The notes beneath the pieces are model-generated. The model ran no database searches. It saw only the letters and a program-made list of their open reading frames with translations, and was not told where the DNA came from. Position numbers and translations under genes: made by a program. A DNA stretch of 64,000 nt from Ostreococcus lucimarinus (lineage: Eukaryota): the NCBI GenBank assembly GCA_000092065.1, contig CP000585.1; one strand, 5' to 3'. Shown piece after piece: positions 3,001-64,000 of this stretch (its first letter is position 1; each line of letters opens with the position of its first letter).

Positions 3001-6000
3001 GGACGTATCGTTCGTTGGAGAAAAGTTGCGCTTGAACCGAGCAAAGAATGAATAGCGCGACGTCGACGCCTATGGAACCAGAGCTGTAACCCAACACAGA
3101 CACACAGTCTGCAGCGAGCATGGTAGCGTCACACGCCGAGCCGAGTTTACGGACACCGAACAAGGAGTTAATTGTTTCGCACATGCGCGTACCCACAACA
3201 CATGACCCAAGTCGCGCAGTGCGACCATTGAGAAGTATCGGCTTGATATAGGGGATCTGATACACAAGTTTCGCCGCGAGGACGGTGAAGACGTACACGG
3301 GCAAGAGACGGAACAACTCGCCATTCCACCATTTGTGGGCGCGACTCGGGAATATTCGAGTGTTTATTCGCAACTCATTGAAGCGCATCGAAAACAAAAT
3401 CGTGATTCCCGCATAGCACAGTGATATGAAATCACTATCGTGCTGCGCCACGGCAGCCGTCGTAGTGAGAATAACGATGACCAAAAGTAGATACTTGTAG
3501 AAGAACTTCAAGAAGAATTGACCCATGATCTCTTCAATTCTCCGTCGCACAGTCGTTCGTCGCTCGTGAATCGCCATCGAAGCGATTTGGCTGAAAGTGT
3601 AGTGCTCTTGAATGACTTGCAATTCTTCCTTAATTGAAACTTGCCTCGATAGATTTCGATTCGTCCAATTGGCGCGCTTCATTTCTTCCCTTTGAAGGTC
3701 TGCGTCCACGCTCGGAACGTACTCTTGGAGTTGCACGTTTACCGCGTCCCATCGCTTTATTTTGTCATCGTAGGAAAGTTCTGATGTTTCATCGAGCTTG
3801 CGCCGTTCTGCGAGGCGAGTATTGACTTTGTTTGCGAGAGATGTAAACGCCTCTGACTGCACCCACTCGCTACCCATCTTTTGGCCTTTCGCTTTCACGT
3901 AGCCGCGCATCCATGCCGTGCGGACGTCGTCCCGAACCATGTTTTTGTGTCCTTTTCGCACGTAATGTCCCACGAGTAACATCACGAGGATGTCAGATAT
4001 TATTTCGTACTCATGTACAAAAACTGGCCTCGAGTTGCAATCCAAATACGCTGACGGCGCAGGCGCTGCGGCAGCGGAGGACGGACAGTCCCAAATATCG
4101 AGCCAAAACCGTTTTTCAGGGCACGTCTCACAGTAATTTGTATTGAGCCAACTCGGCGGCAGGCGCAAGGCGGCCATGATGTGTATCGCCAAGATGGCGC
4201 CGATGATGAGAAGTATTGCGTAACCTTGAGACTGAAATCTCACAACTCCTGCGCGATTGTTGAAGGCCAAAAAGTATCCAAGGATGATGATATATATAGA
4301 ACTCGTCACATCTGATTTTAAGAAGGCATTGATCAGTAACACGGCCATCGCGAGCAGATACTTCAAGCTCGCGAGCTGCTCAATCGCGGAATCTAGTGTC
4401 TCGAAGGTATTCTTGACATCCCACTTCACGAATCGATAAACCATCCTTATGACGATTGGGCGCCATCCGTACAGTGCGATTTTACTTTTGCTATGCTTCA
4501 AACTCCCGGCATTCACCTGTTTGACGAGATTGGCGAATATATCTTCTTCTGCGCGAATCGGCGTCTGCTGCACCATGGGGGACATGCCTTCATCCGTCGT
4601 GACGATTTTCTTCTTGCCCACTGGCGTTTCGATGTTTTTGTTTTTCATGCGCTCGGCGACGATGAGCAATTTCAACTTCTTTGCCACATCGCATCCCTGA
4701 ACTTCACCGCGAAGCTTTGCCCAATAACTCGCTCGCGGAACTGCGGTCGCCGTCGTCGATTTTGCTTTCCGTTGCACCTTGACATTGTGTCGTCTCTGCA
4801 AGAATCCGTGTAAAACGGCGAAAATGATCACCGCATAATGCGCTCCAAAAATGTACCAGTTTGTCGTAAAAGTCAAGCACGCTTGCGTCGGGAACTGGTT
4901 TGATGATGACGCCGCAACACTAGCATCCTGACAAAATGTCTTGGTGGAATCGAGAACGTAAGGCCACGCACAACAACTCGTGGTGGTTTGCAAGTCATCG
5001 CCGAGACGTGGATCGTAAAGTGAAATCAAGCCAAGCCAACTCCCCCAATTTTCGTTTACTAACGTGTTCAGCGATCCCGATTGGAAGATCGTCAAGAGCG
5101 TGAGCTGTTTGAACACGATGGAAATCGTCGCCAGTAGAGCCAAATAAAATCCGTAGTCATTCACCTCAGTGTGAATTGATACTGGCGCGGCATGATGATA
5201 GTCTGATTCCCTCAGGTGACGCCTGAACCACCCAGACGATCCAGATGGACTGCGCCTTGTCTGAATCGGCGGCGGCGTTATGTCGGCGGCCGTGATAACA
5301 TTGCTTCGTATCCGACGCATTCGGTTCAAGAATCGCCATGAATCCGTCAAAATTCTCATCGACGTTCCAATGACGCTAAAAGTTCCATACCGAAGCGGTA
5401 CGGGAGCCTTGCCGCGGATTGTTGGCACAGCGAGTTCTATGCATGCAAACATTATAACCACGACGTAGAGCATACTCACGACTTCGACTCGAAACGCCAC
5501 ACAGATTGTTGCCACGAGTAAAAGCAGCTCCATGGATACGCCGTGTAACGCGGATTCGAATTCATCACCTACCGAGTCTTTCACGTGCTTTAATACCGTA
5601 GCGGTAGCGTGATACAGAAAGATAGACGGACGCATGGTGTTGATGTCCTCGACCTTCGTCGACTCGGATTCCTTACTCATATCGAGACGACGAATCGGTG
5701 TTCCCTCAGGCAGCCCATCTTCGTACCAGTCACTGTCGTAATCTTCACTATCGCGCTGCAAACGCTCGTTAAGCCAGTAATACAACATCACGCACATGAC
5801 CAGTGTAAGGTAACGCGGCCACATGTACTTCCAAGAAAGGAGCGCCGGCGTCTGCAGTAAACCAAAGTCGAGCGGGGTGAGCTGTCGACTCAAACTACTC
5901 GGCCACGCGTCCATGAGACTACCGGCGACCTCTGGTATGTTATAGACGTACAAAAGCGAGATGTACACGTACTGAAATGCGATATAATACCAAAGCGTAT

Positions 6001-7081
6001 TTCGCAAACGCACCAGCCACTTATCTTGGAACTTCTTGGCGTCAACATCGGCGCCTCTCGTACCACTGAGGTTTCTCGCTGACGCCAGCATTCGCAAAAT
6101 GGTCACCAAAACTGTGACTATGTCCACAACTTGAATCATACTCATGGGCAATCCTCCAACGGTTGCTAAACCAGTGAACGTGATTGCGGCGGCTAAGATT
6201 GGAGCGTAGAGCAAAGGTCGATACCCTCCCACGCGGACTCTGAATCCCATCAGCTCTTGAAACTTGAATGAACTATCTATATCGCCGTGTGACACAGCCA
6301 AGGCGAAGCATGCGTTGGCCAACAGAGCGAAAATGAACCCAACAGTTTGCGCCGGTTTCATGCAACAAAGCCGTCCATTCCTACCCAAGGTCCAAAAGCC
6401 AAAGATGTTTGCGACTTTGGACGTTTCTAATTCCTGCGACGTCGCCCCGAGCGAAGTAAACACATACGACCCGAATATGATCAATCCCGTCAGGAATTGC
6501 ATTTTACCCGTGGTTGAAATTGCGTGCTCAAGTCGCGTCAAACGTGACGTGCGTGGATCACCGCGCCCGCCGACGAAACGCGTGTGCACCGCGACGAAGA
6601 GGAGAAACTGCAACACTCCGTTTGCCGAGTATCCCACGACGCCGCAACAAATGAAACCGAGCAGACGCCACCATTTCTGTATCGTATTCCGCAAATCTTC
6701 CTCTGTCAGCCCGACGACGAACATCAAACCTCGTCGCAAGTACTTCGCAATCGCTGTGGTTCTTCTCGACCCGCCAGCCTCCAAATGAGCCAACTCTCGT
6801 CTCAATTCGCCTCGCGCCCACAGCGACGTCAAAGCCACGAACGCATCCGGAATGAGCGAACGCGTGCCGACCGTCGCTTCATCGAACTTTTGCAACCCGA
6901 ACACTTCCAGCCATTTCGTTGGGACTCGTTCCGCCCCGATCGCGGCGTACGACGTTTGAAAAACGACCTGCACGAACAAAAATCCTCCGGCGACGAACGT
7001 CGTAAACGTCACCGCCTTTGTCGACCGTAACACCGCCCTCGCCACCGGTCGCGTCGACGCGCACAGCGCGAGGTAACACAT
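1..7081 (-). CDS. Piezo-type mechanosensitive ion channel homolog. The C-terminus is truncated by the left window edge. The gene appears intronless and is about 2360 codons long in the window.
   Basis: The minus-strand frame (codon high coordinate = 1 mod 3) is continuously open. It starts at ATG 7081-7079, just after an in-frame TAG at 7102-7100, and runs down to position 2 with no stop. It was hand-translated in full over 2-601 and spot-checked near 982, 2578, 3002-3061, 5821-6000 and 7021-7129. It encodes many hydrophobic helices. The Piezo anchor hallmark PFLFEIRTLLDW = PF(X2)E(X6)W lies at 947-982. It is followed by WVVCDTSIDY...KPVPWPLKILLGGGIIAIIMLLLTGPIFIF (outer-helix-like) and then a cap-like domain that runs off the window. 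The track lists no competing ORF of 60 aa or more here in either the minus phase or the plus phase antisense to it over most of 500-7100. The gene itself is absent from the supplied track. Confidence 0.8.
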   Translation of the reverse strand, partial: MCYLALCASTRPVARAVLRSTKAVTFTTFVAGGFLFVQVVFQTSYAAIGAERVPTKWLEVFGLQKFDEATVGTRSLIPDAFVALTSLWARGELRRELAHLEAGGSRRTTAIAKYLRRGLMFVVGLTEEDLRNTIQKWWRLLGFICCGVVGYSANGVLQFLLFVAVHTRFVGGRGDPRTSRLTRLEHAISTTGKMQFLTGLIIFGSYVFTSLGATSQELETSKVANIFGFWTLGRNGRLCCMKPAQTVGFIFALLANACFALAVSHGDIDSSFKFQELMGFRVRVGGYRPLLYAPILAAAITFTGLATVGGLPMSMIQVVDIVTVLVTILRMLASARNLSGTRGADVDAKKFQDKWLVRLRNTLWYYIAFQYVYISLLYVYNIPEVAGSLMDAWPSSLSRQLTPLDFGLLQTPALLSWKYMWPRYLTLVMCVMLYYWLNERLQRDSEDYDSDWYEDGLPEGTPIRRLDMSKESESTKVEDINTMRPSIFLYHATATVLKHVKDSVGDEFESALHGVSMELLLLVATICVAFRVEVVSMLYVVVIMFACIELAVPTIRGKAPVPLRYGTFSVIGTSMRILTDSWRFLNRMRRIRSNVITAADITPPPIQTRRSPSGSSGWFRRHLRESDYHHAAPVSIHTEVNDYGFYLALLATISIVFKQLTLLTIFQSGSLNTLVNENWGSWLGLISLYDPRLGDDLQTTTSCCAWPYVLDSTKTFCQDASVAASSSNQFPTQACLTFTTNWYIFGAHYAVIIFAVLHGFLQRRHNVKVQRKAKSTTATAVPRASYWAKLRGEVQGCDVAKKLKLLIVAERMKNKNIETPVGKKKIVTTDEGMSPMVQQTPIRAEEDIFANLVKQVNAGSLKHSKSKIALYGWRPIVIRMVYRFVKWDVKNTFETLDSAIEQLASLKYLLAMAVLLINAFLKSDVTSSIYIIILGYFLAFNNRAGVVRFQSQGYAILLIIGAILAIHIMAALRLPPSWLNTNYCETCPEKRFWLDIWDCPSSAAAAPAPSAYLDCNSRPVFVHEYEIISDILVMLLVGHYVRKGHKNMVRDDVRTAWMRGYVKAKGQKMGSEWVQSEAFTSLANKVNTRLAERRKLDETSELSYDDKIKRWDAVNVQLQEYVPSVDADLQREEMKRANWTNRNLSRQVSIKEELQVIQEHYTFSQIASMAIHERRTTVRRRIEEIMGQFFLKFFYKYLLLVIVILTTTAAVAQHDSDFISLCYAGITILFSMRFNELRINTRIFPSRAHKWWNGELFRLLPVYVFTVLAAKLVYQIPYIKPILLNGRTARLGSCVVGTRMCETINSLFGVRKLGSACDATMLAADCVSVLGYSSGSIGVDVALFILCSVQAQLFSNERYVREVLRLEKNAMDKRARRSILYRKYILGWRAKIQQEIDEEYKMITDKVRASALQASEWTHFQKFRHTIDEETAAEKYVPEHVTVRAQNSTTVEVKWKMRGSTDDIEQFTIKRERSPRTTIFPHHVNPVKVDVDAESRAPSSHVISGLTPGMSYSFTVQSCSRSIGYGPPSEPSDVVTMPMPQDDEEGEEVLSGKDKLINGVAKVVHAARNSAAYLLDPALYPLPNDKGGESEWTRKGDWGGANIITGFGKIIYSQSERLLYIALVCNFIDHVDLMSACLVIFILAFAAMWNPQPLPEMWRFIFWYSVACFYARILLRSKAFCMELDANAKFDNRNKWYISAQPYCPTMTLYDPAADSEFSTLSATLLTVPRARNLVRDEVWTDIFLIVTLVLHMSHMHSLGQCTRRDAIPLAPREDYQTYHAGEFKDDIDLAALTSPPLEDVATGKTRQVETHHLEGRTSKERTRALRRRERRRAYMRTFGLFTRGIHVAQTRFRELVTQICLSNSAKMPKRNVGKPGVDLYSLEIFLQLIITCWFVTGYRNLVFESGTALSSTESFGTGLTISIVSSVMWIIVMRLVYLSQNIKLKFYLHFAQVVLYVSLVFIFLPLLDTRSFVSPRHNSHLKAFTVLMLFQFIVSALQLREGFREGYQFKIVLMRFGNTPVGRFVYNLINTLPFLFEIRTLLDWVVCDTSIDYVMWFRYETLYYLLHKTDMLISWRRNRRQYYSGAKPVPWPLKILLGGGIIAIIMLLLTGPIFIFSTFNPALTSNRIEAATMQVQLDFYADEKTERHRIYSGFATGYGMSSISQEAMKSELLRGLSFRSIDSDCVRFPKYSQSAWILPQSSKLALAQSLNTAAAASTCTAKMTITTEFTRLGPLKAKTVSQDLVATLTNAHCAALAGVITNGQGSIQFANVIPRGFHLTPETMVEILDFNTSAYIGLNMTLGSTPTANLWEVTPTSPSFPTAAPDFCGIDSTLPPSDYGVLYATISDRYLVGLVSSLG
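2520..2810 (-). other. Fibronectin type III-like module embedded in the Piezo homolog
   Basis: The translation is ...PEHVTVRAQNSTTVEVKWKMRGSTDDIEQFTIKRERSPRTTIFPHHVNPVKVDVDAESRAPSSHVISGLTPGMSYSFTVQSCSRSIGYGPPSEPSDVV. This is the classic FN3 pattern of W, Y-x-V, LxPGxxYxFxV and a GxGxxS tail. The segment VISGLTPGMSYSFTVQSCS was verified at 2521-2580. Confidence 0.5.
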
Positions 7082-15481: not shown

Positions 15482-17047
15482 TTGACTCCTCGCGCCTTCG
15501 AACCGCACTTCGCGCCGCGAACGCACCGCGCACAATGGGCGAAGACGACGATGAATGGCGCTCGCGCGTCAATCGCGACGAGAACCGCGAGGAACTGTGC
15601 GTTTCGAAGCGTGGTGCTCCCGAGCGACGACGAACCGCGCGCGCAAAGTCAATCATCAATCATCTGGAATTGTCGACGAAAACGCGCCGACGGGCGAAGA
15701 CTGACCGCGCACGCATCGTCCGCGCTCGACAGCATGACCGCGATGCTCTCCGCGAAAGATCCGCCCTACGCGGACGCGGTCGTCACGAACGCTAGGGTGG
15801 CGGCGACGAAGCTGGAGAAGATGCTGTTCGAAAAGTGCAAGAGCGAAGAGTCGTACAAGCGCAAAGTTTTAAACAAAATAGAGTCGATCTCGGAGAAGAT
15901 CATACGCGACAGGGCGCAAAAGAATATGGAAGCGCAAGGCTTAAAAATGGCGGAAGCGCCGGCGAAGCGGGCGAAGACGGAGGGTGTGGGAGGTGGCGAA
16001 GCGGCTTCGACTTCGACGGCGCGTTCGCCGTACGAAGAGGGGCGAGCGTATTTTGAAGCGTTGTCGCCGGTGGATCAGAAAACCATGCGAAGGGACATCT
16101 TGAAGCGATGGTTGGAAGAGAATAAAGGGAAGACGGCGATCGCAAACGAGTTTCAATCGACCGAAGACGCGCAGGTGAGGAGGCAGATTTACGTTAACAA
16201 GCTCAAAGATCACCTCGATTTGCACATGTTCAAGTCGTTGACGAATCAGTTACGGGCGCAGCGTCCGACGATAATCAATCCCGAGCTTCAAGGATTTGTC
16301 GCCGATCTCGTGGCGACGGATGCGATGGCGATGCAAGCGGAAACTAAGCGTCAAGCCATCGCCGCCGCCACCAAGTCGTCGACGGTTCAACCTACGTCAG
16401 AGTATTGGCTCAAGGTGCACGAGTTGCACGAAAAATATCACGCCACGCTTAGCCGGGCGCTGAAGAATATTCAAAGCTTGACGAAGAGCGGAGAAAAGCT
16501 ATCAGCGATTCGACAAAAGTTTGTCGACTTGCTGTCCAAGGTAATCTTGCCCGCTATCGAGCAAACTCCGAACAATCGCAACTTGAACGTCGAGGCGACG
16601 GTGACGCATCTCGAGGAAATCGAGCGATCGATCAAGAAAGCGTTGTCATCGTACGACGTGCACGCACAGCGCATGCAAGACCAGAAACGTTTGTTGACGA
16701 TGGCACCGACGCAACGCGCCATCGTATCTCTCACCGAAGGCGTGGAGAACAAGAACAGAACCGACGCTCGTGCCGCCATCGCCGAGACGTGCTCGAAATT
16801 AAACATCGATTTCGACGACTTCACCGCCGATCTGTTCGACTCGGACGAGGAAGAAGACGAAGCGATCGACGTGAACGTACTCTTAAAGGACGTCTTCGCG
16901 AGCGCGGGTGATCAGGCACTCGAAATCGTCCCCGCGGGCGCGCCCGAAACCTGGACGCTCGAGCTCGGCAAGGACGTCGTCGCCGTCGGGTTTCGCGGCG
17001 ACGCCATGTCTGAAACCGAGCGCATCGCCACCGTCGCCGAGTATTAA
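15482..17047 (+). CDS. Nuclear protein with a KIX-like N-terminal region, possibly Mediator Med15-like. The start is probably internal, for example MTAMLSAK.
   Basis: 521-aa ORF. The segment ARVAATKLEKMLFEKCKSEESYKRKVLNKIESISEKI resembles a KIX helix bundle. There is an acidic C-terminal stretch DSDEEEDEAID. No strong enzymatic motif was seen. Confidence 0.35.
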   Translation: MTPRAFEPHFAPRTHRAQWAKTTMNGARASIATRTARNCAFRSVVLPSDDEPRAQSQSSIIWNCRRKRADGRRLTAHASSALDSMTAMLSAKDPPYADAVVTNARVAATKLEKMLFEKCKSEESYKRKVLNKIESISEKIIRDRAQKNMEAQGLKMAEAPAKRAKTEGVGGGEAASTSTARSPYEEGRAYFEALSPVDQKTMRRDILKRWLEENKGKTAIANEFQSTEDAQVRRQIYVNKLKDHLDLHMFKSLTNQLRAQRPTIINPELQGFVADLVATDAMAMQAETKRQAIAAATKSSTVQPTSEYWLKVHELHEKYHATLSRALKNIQSLTKSGEKLSAIRQKFVDLLSKVILPAIEQTPNNRNLNVEATVTHLEEIERSIKKALSSYDVHAQRMQDQKRLLTMAPTQRAIVSLTEGVENKNRTDARAAIAETCSKLNIDFDDFTADLFDSDEEEDEAIDVNVLLKDVFASAGDQALEIVPAGAPETWTLELGKDVVAVGFRGDAMSETERIATVAEY

Positions 17048-24850: not shown

Positions 24851-25368
24851 CGACGCGCCGCCTCCGCCGCGACGCAATCCGCGACGCGCGAACCGACGCG
24901 ACGAACGACGCAGAATGATCTCGCGCGCGACGACGGTGGCGATCGCGCCGAACGCACGCGCGCAAACCCACGCGCGCCAACGACGCGCGCCGAGCGTGCG
25001 GGCGTCGACGTCGGCGCCGACGCTGGGCGGACGACGATCGGCGATCGTCGGCGGCGGCGCGGTGGCGCTCGAACAGCGCGCGATGGCGACGCGCGCGGAG
25101 CGACGACGGGTGGTGACGTGCGTGAAAACGAAGCGATGCGCGCGAGAGGGGTCGGACGCGACGAAAACGGCGACGGGCGAACGCGGGGGGGGGGGGATGA
25201 GTGAACGCGCGCGAGAGAGAGAGAGGGTTTGCCGTCGACGCGAGAGAGAGAGAGGGCGCGAGGGCGAGACGCGGTGCGGGAGAGACGCGGTGCCGGAGGG
25301 TGCGAAGGAAAGGGGATGAAGACTGACGAGGAGGCGCGTTTTCGGAACGTCGCAGTCGCGCCGGTGGT

Positions 25369-28357: not shown

Positions 28358-28730
28358 CGTCGCGCGCGTCGCGCGTTTTGACGCCCGCGGTCCGGTGCGC
28401 CGTCGCGCGTTCGAACGCCGTTCGATCGACGGTCTCGCGAGTCGGGTCGATCGCGATTCGCACGTCGCGCGCCGTCGTCTCGCGTCGCGTCGCGTCGATC
28501 GCGCGATCGCGCGATCCGCCGCCGGCGCGCCGAGCCGTTCGAACGCGCGTTTCAGTACACCTAAACCCTATACTTTTTTATGTATTTCGCGCGCGCGTCG
28601 TGATCTTTGATGCGGTCGAACAGGCGTCGAAGGCGACGATGCGAGACGACGCGAGACGACGCGGCGTCGCGGTCGGTCGCGCGCGGCGATCGGCGTTCGC
28701 GACGTCACTCGACGGGCGACGACGACGACG

Positions 28731-42350: not shown

Positions 42351-42913
42351 TCCACCCGCACGCGTGGTGACCGTCGACGCTCTCCTTGCAGAGCTCGAAG
42401 TCGGCGCGACGTTCGGCGTCGTGCGCTACGTGAGCGTCAAGCCAAAATTTTCGTCGTCAGTCGGTGGTTGGATACGATCGTCGTCGTGCGCGCGTTCGGC
42501 GTGTATATCACGCCTGGGGGTCTCGAGAGCACCGCGCGCGCGAATACAATCGACTTTACGTACCTTGACCGCGAGGGCTCGAGGCGCGGCGGCGATGCGC
42601 GCGTTCGCGGTGACGGTGAAGGACATCGTACGCACGAGGCAAGATATGCGGCGCGCGCGCGGAGAACGCGCGTTCGAATCTTAGTTTCTTCCCGCCGGTG
42701 ACGAAGACGCAGACGTAGATACACGCGCACGTCACGTGCTCATGACACTGGTGACGGCGCAAAGTTCGCGCGCGTTTTGAAATGATGAACAGATCTCCTC
42801 CGTTACAAGTTACGACACAAACGCGGCTATGAACACGTTTGTCGCCTGACACAACCCCCGACCCTCTAAGAACTTTAATTCAAACTCGTACGCATCCTAA
42901 GCGTTCGAAATTT

Positions 42914-44048
42914 TTACAATTTCGCAAGCTTGGCGGCTTCCTCCGCGTCCTTTTCGGCTTTGATAGCCTTGAGAATGCGCGGGCCGACTTGGCGCACGTT
43001 CATGCGCTCGACGCGAAGCTTTCTGTAAGCGCCGAAGTTCTTCATCTCATCGGTAACCGCGACCATCTCAACCGCCTTCTCAACCTTCTCAATCGGCATG
43101 ATGACAGAGCCCTTGTGTTGCGTCGCCGTGGCGAGGTCAGCCGCCGGGCTATCGCCGTGCTTCGGCTTGGAGTTCTTGCGCGGGAACAAGATCAACTTGG
43201 CCTTGTATTCCTCGAGGCGCTTCTTGTTGAGCTGCGTAATCGTAAAACGTAATATCATCAGTCTCGCGTTCGTCGTCGTTTCTCATCCCTCGCGCGTCGT
43301 CTCGCGCTCATCGCATCCTTCATCGGCGCTCAGTTAGGGTCTGCGCGCGCGGACCCTAACTGAGCGCCCCCGTCTCGCGTGAGCTCCCGCGCCGTCGCGC
43401 TCGAATGTACGCACCGCCAAAGACTCCTCACTGCGGTTACGACGACGGTGGTCGACGCAGATCCCGATCGTCGGGGCCATCTTCTTGGAGATACCAGCCG
43501 CCTGTCGCGCGTACACGATCGGTCCGTCAGTCTCGGTTCGCGATCGAGGGTCGCATCGCACGCGCGTTCGTGCGGCGCCTGTCGTCGTCCGTGACGCCCG
43601 TCGAGCATCGACGCGCGAAAGCTCAATACGTACCTTCAATTCCTCGAGCGTGAACCCACGACCGAGACGGGTCTTGAAGTTGTACCGCTGCGTCGGCGGG
43701 TGCACGAGCGGGCGGAGCGAGCCCGCGACGGGGCGCGGGAACGTCTTCTTCGCCTTCAACTCACGCGCGTTACGGCGAGACTTCTTGCGACCGGCTGCGT
43801 GCGAGGTAAAACGTAATTCGTTCGTCAGTGTGCGTTCGTCGAGATCGCGTCGTCGTCGCGCACGGCGTCGCATCGAGCGTCATGAGACGTCGTGACCGAT
43901 GAAAGACCTAATCACGCAGCCGCGTCTCGGATCGCGCGCGCGACGCACCTTGGTTGAGCCACGTGCGCACGCGGCATTGGCCGTTGATGGTGTTACCCTG
44001 CCAATCCTTCTTGAAGTGCGCGTTGGGTAATTGGTTGTTGCCCTTCAT
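42914..44048 (-). CDS. RPL13: 60S ribosomal protein L13 (eL13), 4 exons: complement(join(42914..43231,43415..43501,43634..43794,43949..44048))
   Basis: Exon 1 encodes [17 protein letters not shown]...RVRTWLNQ. Exon 2 encodes [54 protein letters not shown]. Exon 3 encodes [29 protein letters not shown]. Exon 4 encodes [19 protein letters not shown]...AKLAKL. All align to eL13. The donors are GTGCGT, GTACGT and GTGCGT. Two acceptors are ...ACGCAG. Splice phases were checked by hand and total 221 aa. Confidence 0.85.
43328..43365. repeat. Inverted repeat in RPL13 intron 3: 14-bp perfect stem with a 10-nt GC spacer, containing the telomere-like TTAGGG/CCCTAA
   Basis: gctcagttagggtc-tgcgcgcgcg-gaccctaactgagc was read directly. 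Confidence 0.8.
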
Positions 44049-44226
44049 CTTGACGCGTCGGTAAAAGGCGGAGGCTGCACGCGCTCGATCGGGCATGGGC
44101 GAAAATTCCCAAACCCTCGCGCGCGCGCTCGCGATCGAAGGCAAGGGCGAAGAGTGCGTTTCAAATCTATCATAACAACAACGCGTGCGTGCGAAATGCG
44201 AGCAAATAATGGTTTTGTGTGCGTGA

Positions 44227-46935
44227 CTACGCGGATGCACCGCCGAAAACGTCGCGAATGGCTCGAGCGGCGACGCGCGAACTGAGCCGGCGGGCGAGCT
44301 CGGGGACGATTTCGGTGGCCACGGCGGGCAAGAGTGGTGAGATTTCGTTGAATGCACGCGCGTTGACGCGGGAGGATGCATCGGCAAAGTTGAAATCTCG
44401 AACATCGAATTGGACTTCGTCACTTCGCTTGCCGCGAAGAAGGAAATTCAAGAGCTTGGTCGTGCTCGCGAGCGTCTCCTTGTCCGCGTTCGTCATCTTC
44501 GGTGACAGCGGCACGAAGCTCGGGAAACCAGGTAAGAACACGGGGATGCTGGTGTTTTGGAGCCCAAACGCGGTTAAGAGCCGGATGACGTTATCTCGAC
44601 TCAACGCATCGATCCCCTTGACGGCTTCATCGAGTAAGAACTCCCGGAAGAAGGAGCCGTCGGCGGAGAGGACGAATTGCAGCGCGTCGCGCGTCGCCTT
44701 TTCCTCAGCCGTCGCTGGCGCTGGAGCGTTCAGCGCCAAACGCGGGCTCGCCGCTTGTTTCGTCGGGTCACCTTGCGACATCACGCTCGCCGCGCGGAAC
44801 GTTTCCAACGCTTCGAGGAGATCAATCATTCTGTCGGCGTCGAAGACTTCTTTTTTGCCGTACACCATGTAACGAAGCGCCTCGCGAAGACGCGGAGAGT
44901 CGTCCGTTAACAATCGCTTAGCGATGTACGGATACGCTTCGTCGACGAGCGCAAACTCAGGGTTGCCCACGAGCGCGATACCCTCCAACACGCCGATGGC
45001 TCGAATGATGAGCGCAAAGTACGGCGGGATGCGGAACGGGTAATCGAACGTGATTTGCGCCAAGTCCGCCGCCAACTCTTGGAAGTTGATGTTTTTCGCC
45101 CCACCACCCTCGAGCGCTTGGTCGAACACGCGACCGAGGACGGGTAGGATCGGTCGTAAATCCGTGCCTTCGGGAATGAAATCGAGGGTGACGAAATCCT
45201 TCACAATGGCTTCGTAGTCACGATGGATGAGATGCGAAATCGCCTCAATCATCCCGTACTTGATGTTGTCGTCGATGTCCGTCATCAGACCAAAATCGAG
45301 AATCGCGAGTCGTCCATCGGGGGTGCGAATCAGGTTTCCAGGATGTGGATCTGCGTGGAAAAACCCGGTGTCTAGCAGTTGCTTCAAGTAGCAAATGACG
45401 CCGATGTTCACCAAGTCGCCCACGTCGTCCGCCGTGCTCTGCGAAAGTTTTTCACCCTCGAGCCATTCGGAGGTGATGACTTTACGGCGCGTATACTTGG
45501 CGAAAGTCTTAGGAACGACGACTTGCGGCAAATCCTTGGCGATGCTCGCCGCGAATTTGGTTTGATTTTCGCCTTCGAGGTTGTAATCGAGCTCTTCGAA
45601 GAAACGCGCAGCCCACTCGTCGAGCAAGCCGACGACATCCGTCGTGATGGCGGGAAACCGCTTCAGGAACATTCCAATTTTTCTCAAAACGTACAAATCA
45701 ACCGAGACCGTCTCCAACACTGCCGGTCGCTGCACCTTGACGGCGACGATGTCGCCAGTCTCCTTGAGCACGCCTTTGTACACTTGTCCGAGCGACGCCG
45801 CGGCGACGGGTTCGGGGCCGAGCTCGGTGTAGACGTCTTGCCACTTGCATCCGAGTTCATCCTCGAGCGTGGCGAACGCCAATCCGTTATCGAAACTCGG
45901 AACCTTATCGCAAAGCTTTTGCAACTCATTCATCGCCGCCGGGGTCAAAATGTCTGGACGAATGGACAACGCCTGACCCAACTTGATGTACGCCGGTCCG
46001 AGCGACGTGACGATTTCTCTCAACTGAATCGCCCGCTTCACCGCGTTCTCCTCCACGCTCTTCGTCACGAAATCACTGATGATGCCCGTGATGAAAGAGC
46101 CACCGATCGTGGATAACTGTGCCACGCGCTGCGCCACCGCCGCGGGACGTCTCGACCAATAATTCGCGATGAGCTCTGGGTCGTAATACAACGGCAGCTC
46201 GTCCCCGAGCTCGTCGTTCTTCAATTTGTCCACGTCCACCACCTTCATCCGCACCCCATCCGCGGCGAAATCGCTCGCATCGATGTTCGTTCCTCGCAAT
46301 CCAGCCATGAGCACGCTCAAATCCTCATCCTCTTCCATCTGTCTCCGCACGTCGCTCATCTGTTTCTTCATATCCGCCACGGACGACGACGACGACGACG
46401 ACGATTGCGTCGCCCCGCGTCGCCCGCCCTCCGCGCCTTCCCGCGCCGTCTCCACCTCCGGTTCCCGTATCGCTCGCGTTCGCGCGTCTCGCGTCGTCGT
46501 CCGTCTTCCTCGCGCGCCGTCCGCGCCGTCGCGCGTCGCCCCGTCGCCCCGTCCCGCGCGCGTCGACGTCGACGCGCGCGCGCGCGTCTCTCTCGCGCCC
46601 GCCGCGCGCGCGCGTCGCCCGATCGCGCGCGTCGTCGTCGGCGTCGTCGCCATCGTCGTCGACGTCGCCATCGTCGCCATCGTCGTCGTCACCGCGTCGT
46701 CGTCGCCCTCGTCGTCGTCGTCGTCGTCGCGCGGTGTGCCGTCGCCGCGGGACCGCGCGACCGCGCGACCGCGGGACCGACGGACGGCGAAGACGCGCGC
46801 GCGAGGCCGGCGCGATGCCGGCGCGGCCTGCGCGTTTACCGTCCGACTGTTTGCGCGTGCGATCGAACGTGGACGAAAATACCGTATTGAAGCGCCCAAA
46901 AGCGCGATGTCGCGCGTCGATCGGCGATCGCGCAA
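44227..46935 (-). CDS. ABC1/ADCK atypical kinase (ABC1K, plastoglobule-type), plastid-targeted
   Basis: 902-aa ORF. The ABC1 domain includes YDPELIANYWSRRP, LGQALSIRPDILTPAAMNELQKLCDKVP, AASLGQVYKG, and HADPHPGNL...DFG. The long T/R/A-rich N-terminus means the true start may be about 46680 (MATMATSTT). Confidence 0.8.
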   Translation of the reverse strand: MRDRRSTRDIALLGASIRYFRPRSIARANSRTVNAQAAPASRRPRARVFAVRRSRGRAVARSRGDGTPRDDDDDDEGDDDAVTTTMATMATSTTMATTPTTTRAIGRRARAAGARETRARASTSTRAGRGDGATRDGADGARGRRTTTRDARTRAIREPEVETAREGAEGGRRGATQSSSSSSSSVADMKKQMSDVRRQMEEDEDLSVLMAGLRGTNIDASDFAADGVRMKVVDVDKLKNDELGDELPLYYDPELIANYWSRRPAAVAQRVAQLSTIGGSFITGIISDFVTKSVEENAVKRAIQLREIVTSLGPAYIKLGQALSIRPDILTPAAMNELQKLCDKVPSFDNGLAFATLEDELGCKWQDVYTELGPEPVAAASLGQVYKGVLKETGDIVAVKVQRPAVLETVSVDLYVLRKIGMFLKRFPAITTDVVGLLDEWAARFFEELDYNLEGENQTKFAASIAKDLPQVVVPKTFAKYTRRKVITSEWLEGEKLSQSTADDVGDLVNIGVICYLKQLLDTGFFHADPHPGNLIRTPDGRLAILDFGLMTDIDDNIKYGMIEAISHLIHRDYEAIVKDFVTLDFIPEGTDLRPILPVLGRVFDQALEGGGAKNINFQELAADLAQITFDYPFRIPPYFALIIRAIGVLEGIALVGNPEFALVDEAYPYIAKRLLTDDSPRLREALRYMVYGKKEVFDADRMIDLLEALETFRAASVMSQGDPTKQAASPRLALNAPAPATAEEKATRDALQFVLSADGSFFREFLLDEAVKGIDALSRDNVIRLLTAFGLQNTSIPVFLPGFPSFVPLSPKMTNADKETLASTTKLLNFLLRGKRSDEVQFDVRDFNFADASSRVNARAFNEISPLLPAVATEIVPELARRLSSRVAARAIRDVFGGASA

Positions 46936-50791: not shown

Positions 50792-50945
50792 GTTTCGTGA
50801 ACGTTTTAGCAGACTGTAACTTCTATATTACACGTGAAGAAATCTACCACGCGTATTGTATCGCATCGTATCGTGTCGCCGCGCGCGTTTGTTTCATCCC
50901 TGCGCATATCTCTGTGAACGCGCGCGTCGTCAGTCGTTTCGTCTT

Positions 50946-51557
<612 letters not shown>

Positions 51558-51813
51558 CTACGGTGTCGTCTATCGATCGTCGTGCACACGGTCGAGGCGT
51601 TCGGGTGCGTGCGATCGGTCTACGGGTTTCTCGATCGACGCCTCACGCGTCGCCGTCTCGCCTCGTCTCGTCCTCGTCGTCGTCGCGTGGCGCGTCGTCG
51701 TCTGACGCGTCGGTCTCGAAAGTTCAAACGAACGAACGTCCGCGCGAATTTCGCCGCGCGCGAGGGTTTACGAGTGCTTTACGGGTGCTTGTTGAATAAA
51801 CGTGGTTTTCTAT

Positions 51814-51867
51814 ATCGTGCGCAAATTTCTCCTAAATCGTATCGTGCGCAAATTTCTCCTAAATCGA
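51814..51867. repeat. 27-bp tandem duplication (2 copies, 26/27 identical) spanning the ChlD stop codon and last three codons
   Basis: atcgtgcgcaaatttctcctaaatcgt occurs at 51814-51840 and again at 51841-51867. The ChlD stop cta (minus TAG) is at 51859-51861 inside copy 2. Copy 1 lies in the 3' UTR. Confidence 0.85.
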
Positions 51868-57563: not shown

Positions 57564-58637
57564 ATGAGCGATCGCGTCGAAGTTTTCGTGTGCGGAGGCA
57601 CCGGTCTGGTGGGATCGGCGTTGGTGACGCAGCTGCGCGCGAACGCGGCGTCGCGCGCGAACATCAAGCTCGTCGGCTTTTGTTCGTCAACCAAAATCAT
57701 CGCGTTCGAGGGCGAGCAGAAAGAAAGCGTCGTTCGCGAGAGCGCGGACAGACGAGTGCCGAGCGACGATGAAATCATGCAGTGCTGCTCCTCGCCAAAC
57801 GCCACCGTGTGTGTTGTGGACGCCACGTCGAGCGAAGACGTGTCGGCGTTGTACGCCCCGTGGCTCGAGCGTCGCTGGCATGTGGTGACGTGCAACAAAA
57901 AGGTAAATAGCGGCAATCTCGAGTATTACACTCGGTGCATGGACGCGACTAAAAATGGAGGAGGGAAGTGGTTTGTCGAAGCGACGATTGGCGCCGGTTT
58001 ACCCATCGTCAGTACGCTCCGAACGCTCGTCGCGACGGGAGACGAAATCGAATCCGTGCAAGGCATTTTTTCTGGAACGATGAGCTTCTTATTCAACACT
58101 TGGGACGGCGAAAGCGCATTTTCGGAGACCGTAGCGCTCGCAAAGGCGGCTGGGTACACCGAACCGGACCCACGCGAGGATCTCAACGGTTTAGACGTCG
58201 CGAGAAAAGTCGTCATCGCCGCGCGCGAGTGCGGCGTCGCGCTCAGCCTGGACGACGTCGTGGTGCAATCAATGGTACCCTCCGAGCTTGCGTCGTGCTC
58301 CGCGGATGAATTTCTCGAACGGTACGCTGAAAATGACGCGGCGATGGCTCAGGCCGCGGCGAACGCTTCGAAGAAAGGATGCGTTCTTCGCTTCGTCGGT
58401 CACGTCGACGTCAAGGCGCGCTCGGCATCAGTTCGTCTCGTGGAATTCGCCAAGGCGCATCCCTTCGCTACGCTTTCGGGCGCTGATAATATTTTCGAAA
58501 TCAAAACGGCGCGTTACGGTCCCACGGGAGGATCGACCCCGTTGATCGTTCGAGGTCCTGGCGCCGGCGCCGCGGTCACGGCTGCCGGGGTGTTCGGCGA
58601 CATCGTCGGATTGGCAAAGAATTTGTCGCTCGCGTAG
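57564..58637 (+). CDS. Homoserine dehydrogenase
   Basis: ORF 57315..58637. ATG 57564 (MSDRVEVFVCGGTGLVGSA) was verified. The NAD-binding motif is GxGxVG. The catalytic region reads EATIGAGLPIVSTLRTL...GIFSGTMSFLFN. The C-terminus reads PLIVRGPGAGAAVTAAGVFGDI. Confidence 0.8.
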   Translation: MSDRVEVFVCGGTGLVGSALVTQLRANAASRANIKLVGFCSSTKIIAFEGEQKESVVRESADRRVPSDDEIMQCCSSPNATVCVVDATSSEDVSALYAPWLERRWHVVTCNKKVNSGNLEYYTRCMDATKNGGGKWFVEATIGAGLPIVSTLRTLVATGDEIESVQGIFSGTMSFLFNTWDGESAFSETVALAKAAGYTEPDPREDLNGLDVARKVVIAARECGVALSLDDVVVQSMVPSELASCSADEFLERYAENDAAMAQAAANASKKGCVLRFVGHVDVKARSASVRLVEFAKAHPFATLSGADNIFEIKTARYGPTGGSTPLIVRGPGAGAAVTAAGVFGDIVGLAKNLSLA

Positions 58638-58729
58638 GGCTCGCGTAGGGCTCGCGTAGGCACTAGATACATCGTCGGATTGGCAAAGAATTTGTCGCTC
58701 GCGTAGGGCTCGCGTAGGGCTCGCGTAGG
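58601..58729. repeat. 60-bp unit tandemly duplicated with a 9-bp spacer (69-bp period) across the HSD stop codon. Each unit holds three ctcgcgtagg sub-repeats.
   Basis: catcgtcggattggcaaagaatttgtcgctcgcgtagggctcgcgtagggctcgcgtagg occurs at 58601-58660 and identically at 58670-58729. The HSD stop TAG is at 58635-58637 in copy 1. Confidence 0.9.
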
Positions 58730-58805
58730 AGATATAACTATGCATCACAAACACGAATATTTGCGCTAGCGGTCTCTCGATCGATTGTTTTCCATTCGTT
58801 GATAT

Positions 58806-61540: not shown

Positions 61541-63373
61541 GTGCAGCACCATTTTCAAGCTTTTTTTCTGTCGTGCGTTTTTCCCGGTCGTTCTTTCGGC
61601 ACTGCGCGTCGCTCGTTGCCGTCCATGGTGACGAAGGCCGGGCCGCCCGACCCGTGCGACCAATCGTCGTCGTCCGCGTCGTCGTCGGCGTCGTCGTCCT
61701 GCTTTGAAATTCTCGGCCTCGACGGCGCGGCGGCGGACGTCACGCGCGAGGATGTCCGACGGGCGTTTCGAAAACGCCTCGTGCGTGCACATCCCGATCG
61801 CAACAGCGGGTGCTCGCGCGCGTACGACGCGTTGTGCGCGGCGCGAGACGCGGCGTACGACATGGTCGATCGTAAGGACTTGTTAGCGTGCGCGGCGAGG
61901 TACGATTGGCGGGCATCGATGCGGAAAGACGAACGGGCGAACAAACGCGCGGCGGGCGTGGCGAAGCGCGAGGAGCTGAAGACGACGCCGACGAGTCCGC
62001 GTCGACGTTCGGCGGTGAATACATCTTCGTCTTCGATAAACAAGACGAAATTCGGCCCGCACGAATCGCGCGTGACGGTGATGACGGCGCGAGACGATGG
62101 TGTGGTGGCGACGGGCGAGGCGAGCGGACGCGTCAGCGTCTGGCGAGCCGACGGCGCGCGCGTCGACTCGTGCGACGCGCCGTCGACGACGGACAAAACG
62201 AACGATGCGGTATCTATATTGCAATTTAATCGTCATCATGGACTGGTGGCGACGTACGTGACGAGTAAGCCGAGGTTTTGGACCGTCGGCTGCGACACGA
62301 TGTCCGCCGCCGCCGCGACGGAGGTGGACGCACACTCGCGAAGAATAACCGCCGCGAAGTGGTTTGAAGGCGTCGAAGGCGCCGAGATTTGTGACGTCTT
62401 GGTCACCGCAGCTTTAGATGGCACGGTATTCGTGCAAACGTTTTTCGACGGCGCGCTCGGTCCCTCGGCGCTCGCGTCACGCGATGGATTTCGCGCCGTC
62501 AAAGCCGTGGACGCGCTCGCGACGAGCGCCGACGGCGGCGCGTTCGTTGTCACGGACGTCGTCGGAAATTTCAAACTCTGGCGCGTTCGTCTAGAAAATT
62601 CGAAAACATCGCTTACTGTGGAGCCAATCACGAACATCGTGACTTGGAATGGGTTCGGCGGCGTGTGCTTTGCTCGCTTGGCGCGCTCGCCGATGGCGCC
62701 CGACTCGCTTCGATTACTTACAACGTTCACCGATGCAAGCGCTAGACAGTCGCGCGTGTTGGAGTGGTCGGTACCGCATCTCGAAAACGGTGCGGTCGCA
62801 GACGTGCGTGGGTACGTCGGCGCAATACCGAGCGCGAATGGAGTCATACGAGGCGTGGCGAGCGATTTTCTCACCATCGCTCGCTCGAAGGAAGACGACG
62901 ACGACGACGACGACGCCGACGACGACGACGACGAGATGTACCTCCTCGCCGCCAACGACTTGATTTTTGCCGTCGATGCGCGCGCTCGGTGCGTACTATA
63001 TACCATGGACTCCGCGCACTGTCGCGCGCTTCATCCATCGACGACAATTCCCGGCGCCTTTGTCTCGTGCCGCGTCGCCGCCGCTCGCGACGGGGTCGGT
63101 TTCGACGTCTGCGCGCTCGACGATGGTCGAATTATCGCAAAGCTCGATTTCACCGCGGACAAGTTCTTCGATGATGTTGATGACGTCACCGATGGTCGAA
63201 TTATCGCAAAGCTCGATTTCACCGCGGACAAGTTCTTCGATGATGTTGATGACGTCACCGACGCCACCGACGTCAACGCCCAGCGCGCGGCGTCTTCAAT
63301 CCTCGTCGCCTCTTCCTCGTCTCAAGTCCTGCTCCTCGCGCGACGCAGCACCGTCGTCGCGGTGCGTCTGTGA
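61541..63373 (+). CDS. DnaJ (J-domain) protein with a C-terminal beta-rich/WD-like region. The likely start is about 61625 (MVTKAGPPD).
   Basis: The J domain reads CFEILGLDGAAADVTREDVRRAFRKRLVRAHPDRN (HPD motif). A long beta-strand-rich region follows. The coding sequence contains the 2 x 69-bp duplication listed separately. Confidence 0.6.
   Translation: MQHHFQAFFLSCVFPGRSFGTARRSLPSMVTKAGPPDPCDQSSSSASSSASSSCFEILGLDGAAADVTREDVRRAFRKRLVRAHPDRNSGCSRAYDALCAARDAAYDMVDRKDLLACAARYDWRASMRKDERANKRAAGVAKREELKTTPTSPRRRSAVNTSSSSINKTKFGPHESRVTVMTARDDGVVATGEASGRVSVWRADGARVDSCDAPSTTDKTNDAVSILQFNRHHGLVATYVTSKPRFWTVGCDTMSAAAATEVDAHSRRITAAKWFEGVEGAEICDVLVTAALDGTVFVQTFFDGALGPSALASRDGFRAVKAVDALATSADGGAFVVTDVVGNFKLWRVRLENSKTSLTVEPITNIVTWNGFGGVCFARLARSPMAPDSLRLLTTFTDASARQSRVLEWSVPHLENGAVADVRGYVGAIPSANGVIRGVASDFLTIARSKEDDDDDDDADDDDDEMYLLAANDLIFAVDARARCVLYTMDSAHCRALHPSTTIPGAFVSCRVAAARDGVGFDVCALDDGRIIAKLDFTADKFFDDVDDVTDGRIIAKLDFTADKFFDDVDDVTDATDVNAQRAASSILVASSSSQVLLLARRSTVVAVRL
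63121..63258 (+). repeat. Perfect 69-bp in-frame tandem duplication inside the DnaJ gene, duplicating 23 aa (DGRIIAKLDFTADKFFDDVDDVT)
   Basis: cgatggtcgaattatcgcaaagctcgatttcaccgcggacaagttcttcgatgatgttgatgacgtcac occurs at 63121-63189 and again at 63190-63258. Confidence 0.9.
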
Positions 63374-63845
63374 ACGAATGGTGAAAGCGTCGAAACCTAG
63401 AAACCTAGAAAGAGGTGAAACTGAATTTGAAAGATATAGAATGCAAAGCGATTCACCCACGTCGCCGTCGTCGTCCCGCGTCGTCTCCCAGCGCGCGTCG
63501 CCGCACTCGCCTCCCTGAAACTAGGGCTAGAAACTAGGGTTAGCAGTTTCTCTGGAACATGACGCTTTTGCCGCCCTGGAAGTTGCGCGAGTAAAGGGGT
63601 CACCAAAACCACTACACTGGCGGTCGACGACGTTGGAATTTTGCGTACACGCAGGAAACACGCATTTGCATCTGTGTACGCGCGCGTTTCGCGAACCTCT
63701 GGGTGCCGGCGGCGACCCGGACCTTCACGTCGTCGCGGGCGTAGGCCGCGGTTTGGGTTTTTTTGGAAATGTGTGATGGTGGTTTTGGGTTGAGACTACG
63801 TTAGTGAGGGCGGGGTAAACTAGGGTTTGGAGGACTAGGGTTCGG
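63374..63845. repeat. Short subtelomeric region with degenerate telomere-like motifs (aacctag, ctagggctag, aaactagggttag, ggtttgg) and no recognisable gene
   Basis: Read directly. Motif density rises toward the perfect array. Confidence 0.6.
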
Positions 63846-64000
63846 GTTTAGGGTTTAGGGTTTAGGGTTTAGGGTTTAGGGTTTAGGGTTTAGGGTTTAG
63901 GGTTTAGGGTTTAGGGTTTAGGGTTTAGGGTTTAGGGTTTAGGGTTTAGGGTTTAGGGTTTAGGGTTTAGGGTTTAGGGTTTAGGGTTTAGGGTTTAGGG
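63846..64000 (+). repeat. Telomere: (TTTAGGG)n, about 22 perfect copies, running off the window
   Basis: The perfect tttaggg array has the G-rich strand 5'->3' toward the end, as expected for a right chromosome terminus. This is the Arabidopsis/green-algal-type telomere repeat. Confidence 0.95.

Follow-up and report, generated by a model that had tools for sequence, protein, structure and literature searches.

A polymorphic palindrome in an RPL13 intron of Ostreococcus lucimarinus, probably produced by one template switch on an older repeat with a conserved telomere-like motif

Why does an intron of a ribosomal-protein gene carry a near-perfect palindrome with a telomere-like motif in its arms, and which of the two, palindrome or motif, has been kept in evolution? 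We addressed this question at the RPL13 (RPL13e, eL13) locus of a 64,000-nucleotide (nt) stretch of contig CP000585.1 (hereafter the window). Exact protein matches, for its translated open reading frames and for spliced RPL13, place it in the nuclear genome of Ostreococcus lucimarinus CCE9901, where it forms the last 64 kb of a chromosome recorded at 847,696 bp. The right end of the window is a true telomere, (TTTAGGG)n, with 23.7 copies of the 7-mer TAGGGTT at 63836-64000, and is therefore the right-hand end of a chromosome; the telomere unit of this species is a plant-type heptamer, not TTAGGG. RPL13, the sole cytosolic ribosomal-protein gene within the window, lies ~20 kb from the chromosome end, and its O. 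tauri orthologue is similarly far from the end of its own record. An earlier reading of the sequence (the original prediction) had described a 14-bp perfect inverted repeat around a GC spacer in the third RPL13 intron, containing TTAGGG/CCCTAA, and had offered a structured RNA, a telobox-like protein-binding site or an introner-type element as its explanation.

The repeat is real and well beyond chance, although its size had been misjudged: it is a palindrome of two 22-nt arms (43325-43346 and 43347-43368) that meet without a spacer, with 17-bp perfect arms around a CG core, and reads GGCGCTCAGTTAGGGTC-CGCGCGCGCA-GACCCTAACTGAGCGCC in the transcript direction. As RNA it folds with a calculated energy of -39.3 kcal/mol (z = -6.4). 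The 5' arm of the transcript includes the conserved TTAGGGTC at 43352-43359, and the arm matches 7 contiguous telomeric bases (TTAGGGT). The notion of a telomere motif held in that TTAGGG/CCCTAA does lie in the palindrome arms; it did not hold for the hexamer as the unit of the species' own telomere. Outside the telomere, TTAGGG occurs six times on both strands against ~6 expected, two of the six being the palindrome arms, and at this frequency the hexamer alone is at chance level. Copies were sought in the window, in viral contigs and in a metagenome collection. Within the window the 22-nt arm matched nothing else at up to 3 mismatches (0/100 shuffles gave a match), and no other high-complexity near-perfect palindrome was present, the remaining long inverted repeats being CG-rich low-complexity runs. 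A scan of the viral contigs for the arm found nothing, and a metagenome scan with GCTCAGTTAGGGTC-N10-GACCC returned five loci, four of which are RPL13 intron 3 with its flanking exons, while the fifth (L023) has the same intron-3 sequence and aligns here. The search for other hairpin copies that had been proposed originally thus came back empty outside the RPL13 locus and, there being no family of copies in the sequences searched, the putative introner or miniature inverted-repeat transposable element (MITE) was rejected.

We then compared CCE9901 with the orthologous loci of O. tauri (L001), of two further lineages (L002 and L013, ~82-83% identical in the neighbouring ABC1 gene) and of a lineage ~4% diverged (L025). 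The three RPL13 introns occupy the same positions in O. tauri, L002, L013 and L025, with intron 3 at the same codon position. The palindrome is absent in O. tauri, L002 and L013, where the equivalent region is not significantly structured (z from -1.05 to +1.08) and a lone sense-strand TTAGGGTCT stands at the matching place. Taken by itself the hairpin is therefore unique and unconserved in relatives, the outcome that the original prediction had set against its own proposals. What is shared is the motif: every Ostreococcus lineage examined has TTAGGGTC(T) at a distance of 53-57 nt from the start of intron 3, and three of the four lineage groups have TTTAGGGT as the surrounding block, which comprises a full telomere unit and one further base. 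A 9-mer such as TTAGGGTCT common to three independent lineages was reached in 15 of 5000 dinucleotide shuffles, its constant position not counted.

Within the O. lucimarinus lineage the intron exists as three alleles. The perfect type, C, is carried by CCE9901 and by two wild contigs (L024 and L026), whose introns, the palindrome aside, depart from that of CCE9901 at a single base. Type V (L027 and L023, on a background ~99% identical to CCE9901) consists of the 5' arm followed by TGCGCGCGCG and GACCCGGGCGAGCGCC, and type W, native to L025, of the 5' arm followed by TGCGCGCGCG and GACCCGAACGAGCGCC. Over the first 63 and the last 100 nt of the intron, C and V show no difference (0 in those 163 nt); between these stretches, one block of 19-20 nt, which reads CGCGCGCGCAGACCCTAACT in C and TGCGCGCGCGGACCCGGGC in V, differs by 5 substitutions and 1 indel. 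All of these differences fall within a 32-nt segment of C that reproduces V positions 46-78, the 5' arm plus core, exactly in reverse complement, so that the core TGCGCGCGCG of V and W appears as CGCGCGCGCA in C. That C is the derived allele follows from two agreements: W and V have the TGCGCGCGCG core and the shorter 3' arm in common, and the T after GGGTC in them recurs in O. tauri, L002 and L013. One event covers four changes (T>C, G>A, G>T and +T) when C is compared with a W-like ancestor, and six when it is compared with V.

To account for the anatomy, uniqueness, polymorphism, polarity and exact reverse-complement relation described above, we propose that the palindrome is probably the product of a single recent template-switch mutation, still polymorphic, on a pre-existing imperfect repeat that already held the conserved motif. 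An older sense-strand TTAGGGTC(T), resembling the telomere repeat, is kept 53-57 nt from the 5' splice site in all Ostreococcus lineages examined and, in the O. lucimarinus lineage, would have come to lie in an imperfect inverted repeat, in which the 5' arm is followed by TGCGCGCGCG and a 3' arm that matches it imperfectly. DNA synthesis in one haplotype may then have switched template once, over a short range, replacing core and 3' arm together, the nascent strand copying the 5' arm and core in reverse complement (quasipalindrome correction). The arms would thereby have become identical and the CG core inverted, yielding the near-perfect 44-nt palindrome of CCE9901 and some wild cells, and the second 'telomere motif', CCCTAA, would be a by-product that arose when the conserved TTAGGG(TC) was copied into its complement. 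A yeast inverted-repeat study has described the combination of homogenised arms and an inverted spacer as the signature of template switching between imperfect inverted repeats (PMC8604942), and template switching has been proposed as a one-step route to perfect RNA hairpins (Loytynoja & Goldman 2017, PMC5453318; Monttinen & Loytynoja 2022, PMC8794818). We infer that the perfect palindrome itself is selectively neutral or nearly so.

Several points weigh against this account. The switch was deduced from a comparison of alleles and not observed, and the same sequence would result from 4-6 independent mutations or from gene conversion between cruciform arms, which is mechanistically near to a template switch. 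A stable hairpin (-33 kcal/mol) predates the perfecting event, and the difference between W and V, AA versus GG, keeps RNA pairing (U-A versus U-G wobble), which leaves room for selection on RNA structure. Allele frequencies are uncertain, given that L007, L008 and L012 carry a W-type intron on a CCE9901-like background; one scaffold (L006) has a run of Ns at the palindrome; and any regulatory role of the core motif rests on conservation in one gene.

In a competing explanation, the hairpin is a selected RNA structure of the RPL13 pre-mRNA and the perfect palindrome an improved version of it; the structure might act by shortening the effective distance between 5' splice site and branch point, or by masking or presenting UUAGGGUC so that splicing is regulated or autoregulated. 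Strong folding is common to all three alleles of the O. lucimarinus lineage (-39.3, -33.0 and -33.1 kcal/mol; z from -4.2 to -6.4), the AA/GG difference preserves pairing through G-U wobble in RNA and would not preserve it in DNA, and the related motifs of intron 1, intron 3 and the 3' untranslated region (UTR) are on the transcribed strand. However, O. tauri, L002 and L013 splice the homologous intron without such a structure, compensatory change on both sides was seen in no pair, and for the perfect form, which is polymorphic, a mutational origin suffices without selection. Rfam families were likewise unmatched: a scan of 42700-44300 at a permissive threshold gave just sub-threshold generic microRNA-hairpin matches (best 17-20 bits against gathering thresholds of 78-84). 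We therefore regard a selected structure as unlikely; of the structured RNA first proposed, the strong fold is sound, and the reading is weakened by the hairpin occurring in the O. lucimarinus lineage alone, varying among wild cells and being perfect only in a derived form. A microRNA or mirtron precursor and a small nucleolar RNA (snoRNA) were also tried and set aside, their Rfam scores being below threshold and the hairpin absent in other species. An origin as a mobile or repeated element, be it an introner or the footprint of a MITE or transposon with terminal inverted repeats, would have in its favour that perfect inverted repeats are typical of MITEs and that introner elements are known from the related genus Micromonas (PMC4540971). 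It would require copies, and there was no second one in the window (at up to 3 mismatches) or the viral contigs, the metagenome matches all representing one locus. The position of the intron is moreover shared with at least four Ostreococcus lineages, among them palindrome-free ones, and imperfect precursor alleles occupy the same site, so that a mobile origin appears very improbable and the introner-type element of the original prediction was abandoned.

Could the palindrome instead be a DNA site, with two inverted telobox-like half-sites bound by a dimeric telomere-repeat-binding Myb protein and acting as an intronic enhancer? The conserved TTAGGGTC(T) core corresponds to 7-8 contiguous bases of the species' own telomere repeat, GGGTTT(AG) is conserved in the 5' leader, and a GC-rich relative (L028/L042) has TTTTAGGGTTTTC in its only RPL13 intron, differently placed. 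In plants, no motif is linked more strongly to the genes for ribosomal proteins and ribosome biogenesis than AAACCCTA(A), which stands close to where transcription starts (PMC1794593, PMC2576244). Against this, the inverted second half-site is limited to the derived allele and other species have a single site, the intron-1 motif is short of one G of the telomere unit, and the intron-3 site lies ~700 nt past the ATG, beyond the range of -60 to +140 relative to the transcription start reported for Arabidopsis telo-boxes (PMC2576244). The ribosomal-protein genes of Chlamydomonas have in addition been reported to lack telo-boxes, the link being called land-plant specific (PMC3212954). A paired DNA site of this kind is, in our judgement, quite unlikely; what survives of the telobox idea is the conservation of the core motif TTAGGGTC(T) and of the leader GGGTTT(AG), and not of the palindrome as such. 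As for a sequencing or assembly artefact of the reference, or a mutation acquired in culture, palindromes do disturb assemblies and one metagenome scaffold has Ns exactly there. The independent environmental contigs L024 and L026 nevertheless carry the same perfect palindrome, with one other intron difference from CCE9901, and make an artefact scarcely credible. Among these explanations, we accordingly favour the template switch.

The palindrome also bears on how environmental contigs at this locus should be read. Perfect palindromes hinder de Bruijn assemblers. One contig (L007) equals CCE9901 over 6 kb except for 21 columns, all of them in intron 3, and three contigs (L007, L008 and L012) are otherwise ~99.9% identical to CCE9901 while their intron 3 is the W allele of the 4%-diverged lineage. 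A hypermutable intron 3, which L007 had suggested, was dropped, since L025 shows the W-type intron to be native to a lineage ~4% diverged throughout; the three contigs are therefore mosaics, for which chimeric assembly at the palindrome is as likely as real recombination. Together with the Ns in the sister scaffold L006, these mosaics suggest that the palindrome breaks short-read assemblies. In three further contigs (L009, L010 and L011), which come from separate samples and were built by different assemblers, exon 4 and the region downstream are of the O. lucimarinus type and intron 3 is of the L002 type, the switch falling inside a 59-nt stretch that is identical between the two species; they are probably assembly chimeras, or else may be natural inter-lineage recombinants.

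If the palindrome is a recent by-product, the conserved motif deserves attention in its own right. RPL13 branch points are kept across lineages, the introns being otherwise unalignable apart from short blocks, and in intron 2 nothing is kept except the branch point. Intron 1 contains the 11-mer TTAGGTCTTTC, 18-37 nt from its start, a length that 0/2000 dinucleotide shuffles of three lineages reached. In L002 the intron motifs read TTTAGG-TCTTT and TTTAGGGTCTTT, and to judge from their sequences the two are clearly versions of one motif. A similar motif, TTAGAGGG, is found in the 3' UTR. In the leader, the core GGGTTT is present in all lineages 68-104 nt upstream of the ATG; L002 and L013 have it in the longer form AGGGTTTAG, and O. 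tauri has it as GGGTTTAG. The 5' ends of sister-lineage transcripts coincide with the leader GGGTTTAG or precede it by a few bases, so that the leader motif belongs to the transcription start or the 5' UTR. In the distant GC-rich relative (69% GC, 76% protein identity), RPL13 has just one intron, ~380 nt long and at another codon position (L028 1770-2150, L042 1270-1650), and this intron contains TCCGCCTTTTAGGGTTTTCC, which joins TCCGCCTTT and a telobox, two motifs that are separate in the 5' leader of Ostreococcus. As a weak pointer within the window, AAACCCT/AGGGTTT occurs five times outside the telomere, four of these in non-coding DNA, namely in the RPL13 leader, in the UAA-transporter intron, at 51763-51769 (209 nt upstream of the UBC start) and at 28563-28569, the last of which lies in a promoter region between two divergently oriented genes. 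In a distant picoeukaryote with a divergent RPS16-RPL13 pair, AGTTAGGGTTCAG was seen between the genes in one contig (L040) and not in a near-identical one (L041), and was not used as evidence. Three O. mediterraneus contigs with uninterrupted coding sequence (L032-L034) look like transcript assemblies fused to the upstream gene, as do L035 and L036, and were set aside as uninformative on introns.

The core motif, its counterparts in intron 1 and the 3' UTR, and the leader GGGTTT(AG) may represent putative cis-regulatory signals, acting either as a telobox-type DNA site or as a single-stranded UAGG(G)U RNA site. The RPL13 leader motif (AGGGTTT in O. lucimarinus, AGGGTTTAG in L002 and L013, GGGTTTAG in O. 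tauri) and the (T)TTAGGGTCT of intron 3 match the plant-type AAACCCTA(A) at 7-8 of 9 bases. The leader motif, which stands at the 5' ends of the sister-lineage transcripts, would fit the plant picture of a telobox near the transcription start; the intron-3 motif is ~700 nt downstream of the ATG. The intron-1, intron-3 and 3'-UTR motifs are all on the transcribed strand, and those of the introns run into a non-telomeric TCT(TT). UAGGG-type sites are bound by heterogeneous nuclear ribonucleoprotein (hnRNP) A/B proteins; the intron and 3'-UTR motifs resemble such sites and hence may be an RNA-level element. In a search of the literature, no paper on teloboxes in Ostreococcus ribosomal-protein genes was found. 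A broader and more doubtful proposal is that TTAGG(G)TCT of introns 1 and 3, TTAGAGGG and the leader GGGTTT(AG) make up a hitherto undescribed, telomere-derived cis-regulatory code for the ribosomal-protein genes of the Mamiellales, or else the target of an RNA-level UAGGG-binding regulator. If that were true, telobox-type control of translation genes would move from land plants to the base of the green lineage, and the O. lucimarinus population would be a natural allelic series that buries the element in ever stronger hairpins. With respect to how the smallest free-living eukaryotes regulate their ribosomal-protein genes, we regard the leader, intron and 3'-UTR motifs as a lead rather than as a finding.

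The gene model underlying these comparisons is set out in Table 1. Spliced RPL13 encodes 221 amino acids (aa), is identical to XP_001418121.1 and matches the Pfam family L13e (PF01294) with E = 9.8e-76. Splicing in O. lucimarinus was judged by the match to the annotated protein, and transcript evidence comes from the sister lineage, of which three spliced contigs of ~1 kb (L037-L039, one with a poly(A) tail) showed gaps at the three homologous intron positions when aligned to genomic L002. TTGTAA lies ~85-105 nt past the RPL13 stop codon, and the poly(A) tail of the sister-lineage transcript L039 begins ~20 nt downstream of it. No snoRNA match was obtained in the RPL13 introns with Rfam; a C/D-box snoRNA, considered for UGAUGA-like strings in introns 1 and 3, was rejected on the same ground and because the strings are not conserved.

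Table 1. Positions of the palindrome, the RPL13 gene and its motifs, and the introns of the window
Feature	Position	Strand	Details
Palindrome, 44 nt (22+22), one mismatch, no spacer	43325..43368		17-bp perfect arms around CG core
5' arm in transcript, GGCGCTCAGTTAGGGTC	43352..43368	-	Older arm; unchanged among the three O. lucimarinus alleles
Derived segment: inverted CG core (43342-43351) and 3' arm (43325-43341)	43325..43351	-	Allele comparison
RPL13e (eL13) gene, ATG to stop	42914..44048	-	Spliced product = XP_001418121.1
RPL13 exons	44048-43949, 43794-43634, 43501-43415, 43231-42914	-	
RPL13 intron 1, 154 nt	43795..43948	-	GTGCGT ... ACTGAC ... ACGCAG
RPL13 intron 2, 132 nt	43502..43633	-	GTACGT ... 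GACTGACG ... CGACAG
RPL13 intron 3, 183 nt, palindrome host	43232..43414	-	GTGCGT ... ACTGAT ... ACGCAG
Intron-1 motif TTAGGTCTTTC (11-mer)	43901..43911	-	Common to all five Ostreococcus lineages compared
Telomere-like AGGGTTT (AAACCCT on +)	44111..44117	-	68 nt upstream of RPL13 ATG
Pyrimidine-rich TCCGCCTTT, RPL13 5' leader	44064..44072	-	Conserved, 24-40 nt upstream of ATG
3'-UTR motif TTAGAGGG, similar to intron motifs	42862..42869	-	Conserved; 6/2000 shuffles
TTGTAA, contains green-algal TGTAA polyadenylation signal	42803..42808	-	Kept across lineages
UBC E2 intron 1, 129 nt	51275..51403	-	GTACGT ... ACGCAG
UBC E2 intron 2, 58 nt	50912..50969	-	GTACGT ... GACTGACG ... CACAG; absent from NCBI model XP_001418123.1
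UAA/DMT nucleotide-sugar transporter intron, 238 nt, annotated	25118-25355	+	Spliced product = XP_001417875.1
Intron of small gene directly downstream of RPL13, 138 nt	42563-42426	-	184-aa product matches JGI/Logan records exactly
Candidate intron, 136 nt	15597-15732	+	GTGCGT ... GACTGAC ... CGACAG

Introns had originally been reported in RPL13 (132-183 nt) and the UBC E2 gene (129 nt) only. These four match the annotated proteins exactly. A scan for donor, branch point and acceptor, the products of which were then sought as exact protein sequences, supported at least three more, so that the restriction to RPL13 and UBC was wrong. The start of the UBC E2 gene is at 51554 (minus strand), and removal of its 129-nt intron gives the 159 aa of XP_001418123.1; with both introns removed it gives 157 aa ending in ...EWTKRYAQG, a product found exactly in an MMETSP transcript record. 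This C-terminus resembles the ...EWTQKYAM end of human UBE2D2, and the annotated UBC C-terminus looks like read-through into intron 2. The small gene adjoining RPL13 has an upstream 63-nt exon from the ATG at 42626, where the NCBI model (XP_001418120.1) is a single exon of 138 aa, and the N-terminus of the 184-aa product looks like a transit peptide. Both the second UBC intron and the small-gene intron rest on exact matches to transcriptome or short-contig protein records, and two annotated gene models appear to need correction, that of UBC at its C-terminus and that of the small gene beside RPL13 at its N-terminus. The candidate intron at 15597-15732 would put a 62-nt first exon (from 15535) in frame with an open reading frame (ORF) at 15733-17047; its spliced product was not found by exact look-up in the protein collection. 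The UAA/DMT transporter intron is GA/GAG-rich and has AGGGTTT at 25224. Introns are sparse, seven or eight across the ~37 ORF-defined genes of the window.

The splice signals behaved largely as first described. The donor pattern GT[GA]CGT was borne out in the initial four introns (GTGCGT, GTACGT, GTGCGT and GTACGT) and extends to all seven supported introns and the one candidate, each having GTGCGT or GTACGT. Three of the four initial acceptors are indeed ACGCAG and the other is CGACAG; across the eight acceptors of the window we counted ACGCAG three times, CGACAG twice, and TCGCAG, ACGTAG and TCACAG once each, so ACGCAG is not general. ACTGAC or ACTGAT begins 29-34 nt upstream of the intron 3' end in all three RPL13 introns, the branch point GACTGACG recurs in the UAA-transporter, small-gene and second UBC introns, and no clear branch-point match was found in UBC intron 1. 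The published O. lucimarinus consensus is GTGCGTG for the 5' splice site and GACTGACG for the branch point (Irimia & Roy 2008, PMC2483917), and an excess of introns in highly expressed genes has been reported for Ostreococcus (Lanier et al. 2008, PMC2367439). The introns of the window are ordinary U2-type introns with strong consensus signals already published for this species.

Elsewhere in the window, a single open reading frame of >2,360 codons occupies 1-7081 on the minus strand and runs off the left edge; it stands in DNA of lower G+C content (0.50-0.52 versus ~0.59 elsewhere). Perfect or near-perfect tandem duplications were observed at 58600-58754 (69 nt), 63121-63261 (69 nt) and 51813-51866 (27 nt), the one at 58600-58754 having three GCTCGCGTAGG units in each copy and the one at 63121-63261 lying ~600 nt from the telomere.

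On the template-switch account, the RPL13 palindrome would be a clean natural example of such a mutation, still polymorphic, with precursor and product alleles both present in ocean metagenomes. It would illustrate that a perfect hairpin can arise from an imperfect repeat in one step, and the prominence of the 'telomere motif' would be owed to the copying event.

Set beside known systems, the palindrome most resembles the template-switch or quasipalindrome mutations of the Ripley model, with which it shares changes clustered within ~20 nt that are the reverse complement of the adjacent arm, an inverted spacer, homogenised arms and a perfect hairpin as the result. Unlike the described cases, it was deduced from alleles and segregates in a marine picoalga, within a ribosomal-protein intron and over a conserved motif. 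With the introners of Micromonas and other algae it has in common the order of the host alga and the presence, within an intron, of an unusual repeat-like feature, but it is single copy, in an old intron position and without a family of copies. The conserved motifs recall the plant telo-box (AAACCCTAA) as short interstitial telomere matches near the start of a ribosomal-protein gene, kept across species and with further matches downstream in the transcribed region; they depart from it in matching at 7-8 of 9 bases, in the TCT(TT) extension, in one of them lacking a G, and in the intron motifs being on one strand and far from the transcription start. The introns themselves are like the canonical Ostreococcus class outside chromosome 2, with GT[GA]CGT donors, (G)ACTGA(C/T)(G) branch points, lengths of 58-238 nt and a place in highly expressed genes such as those for ribosomal proteins, and from this class they show no substantive difference.

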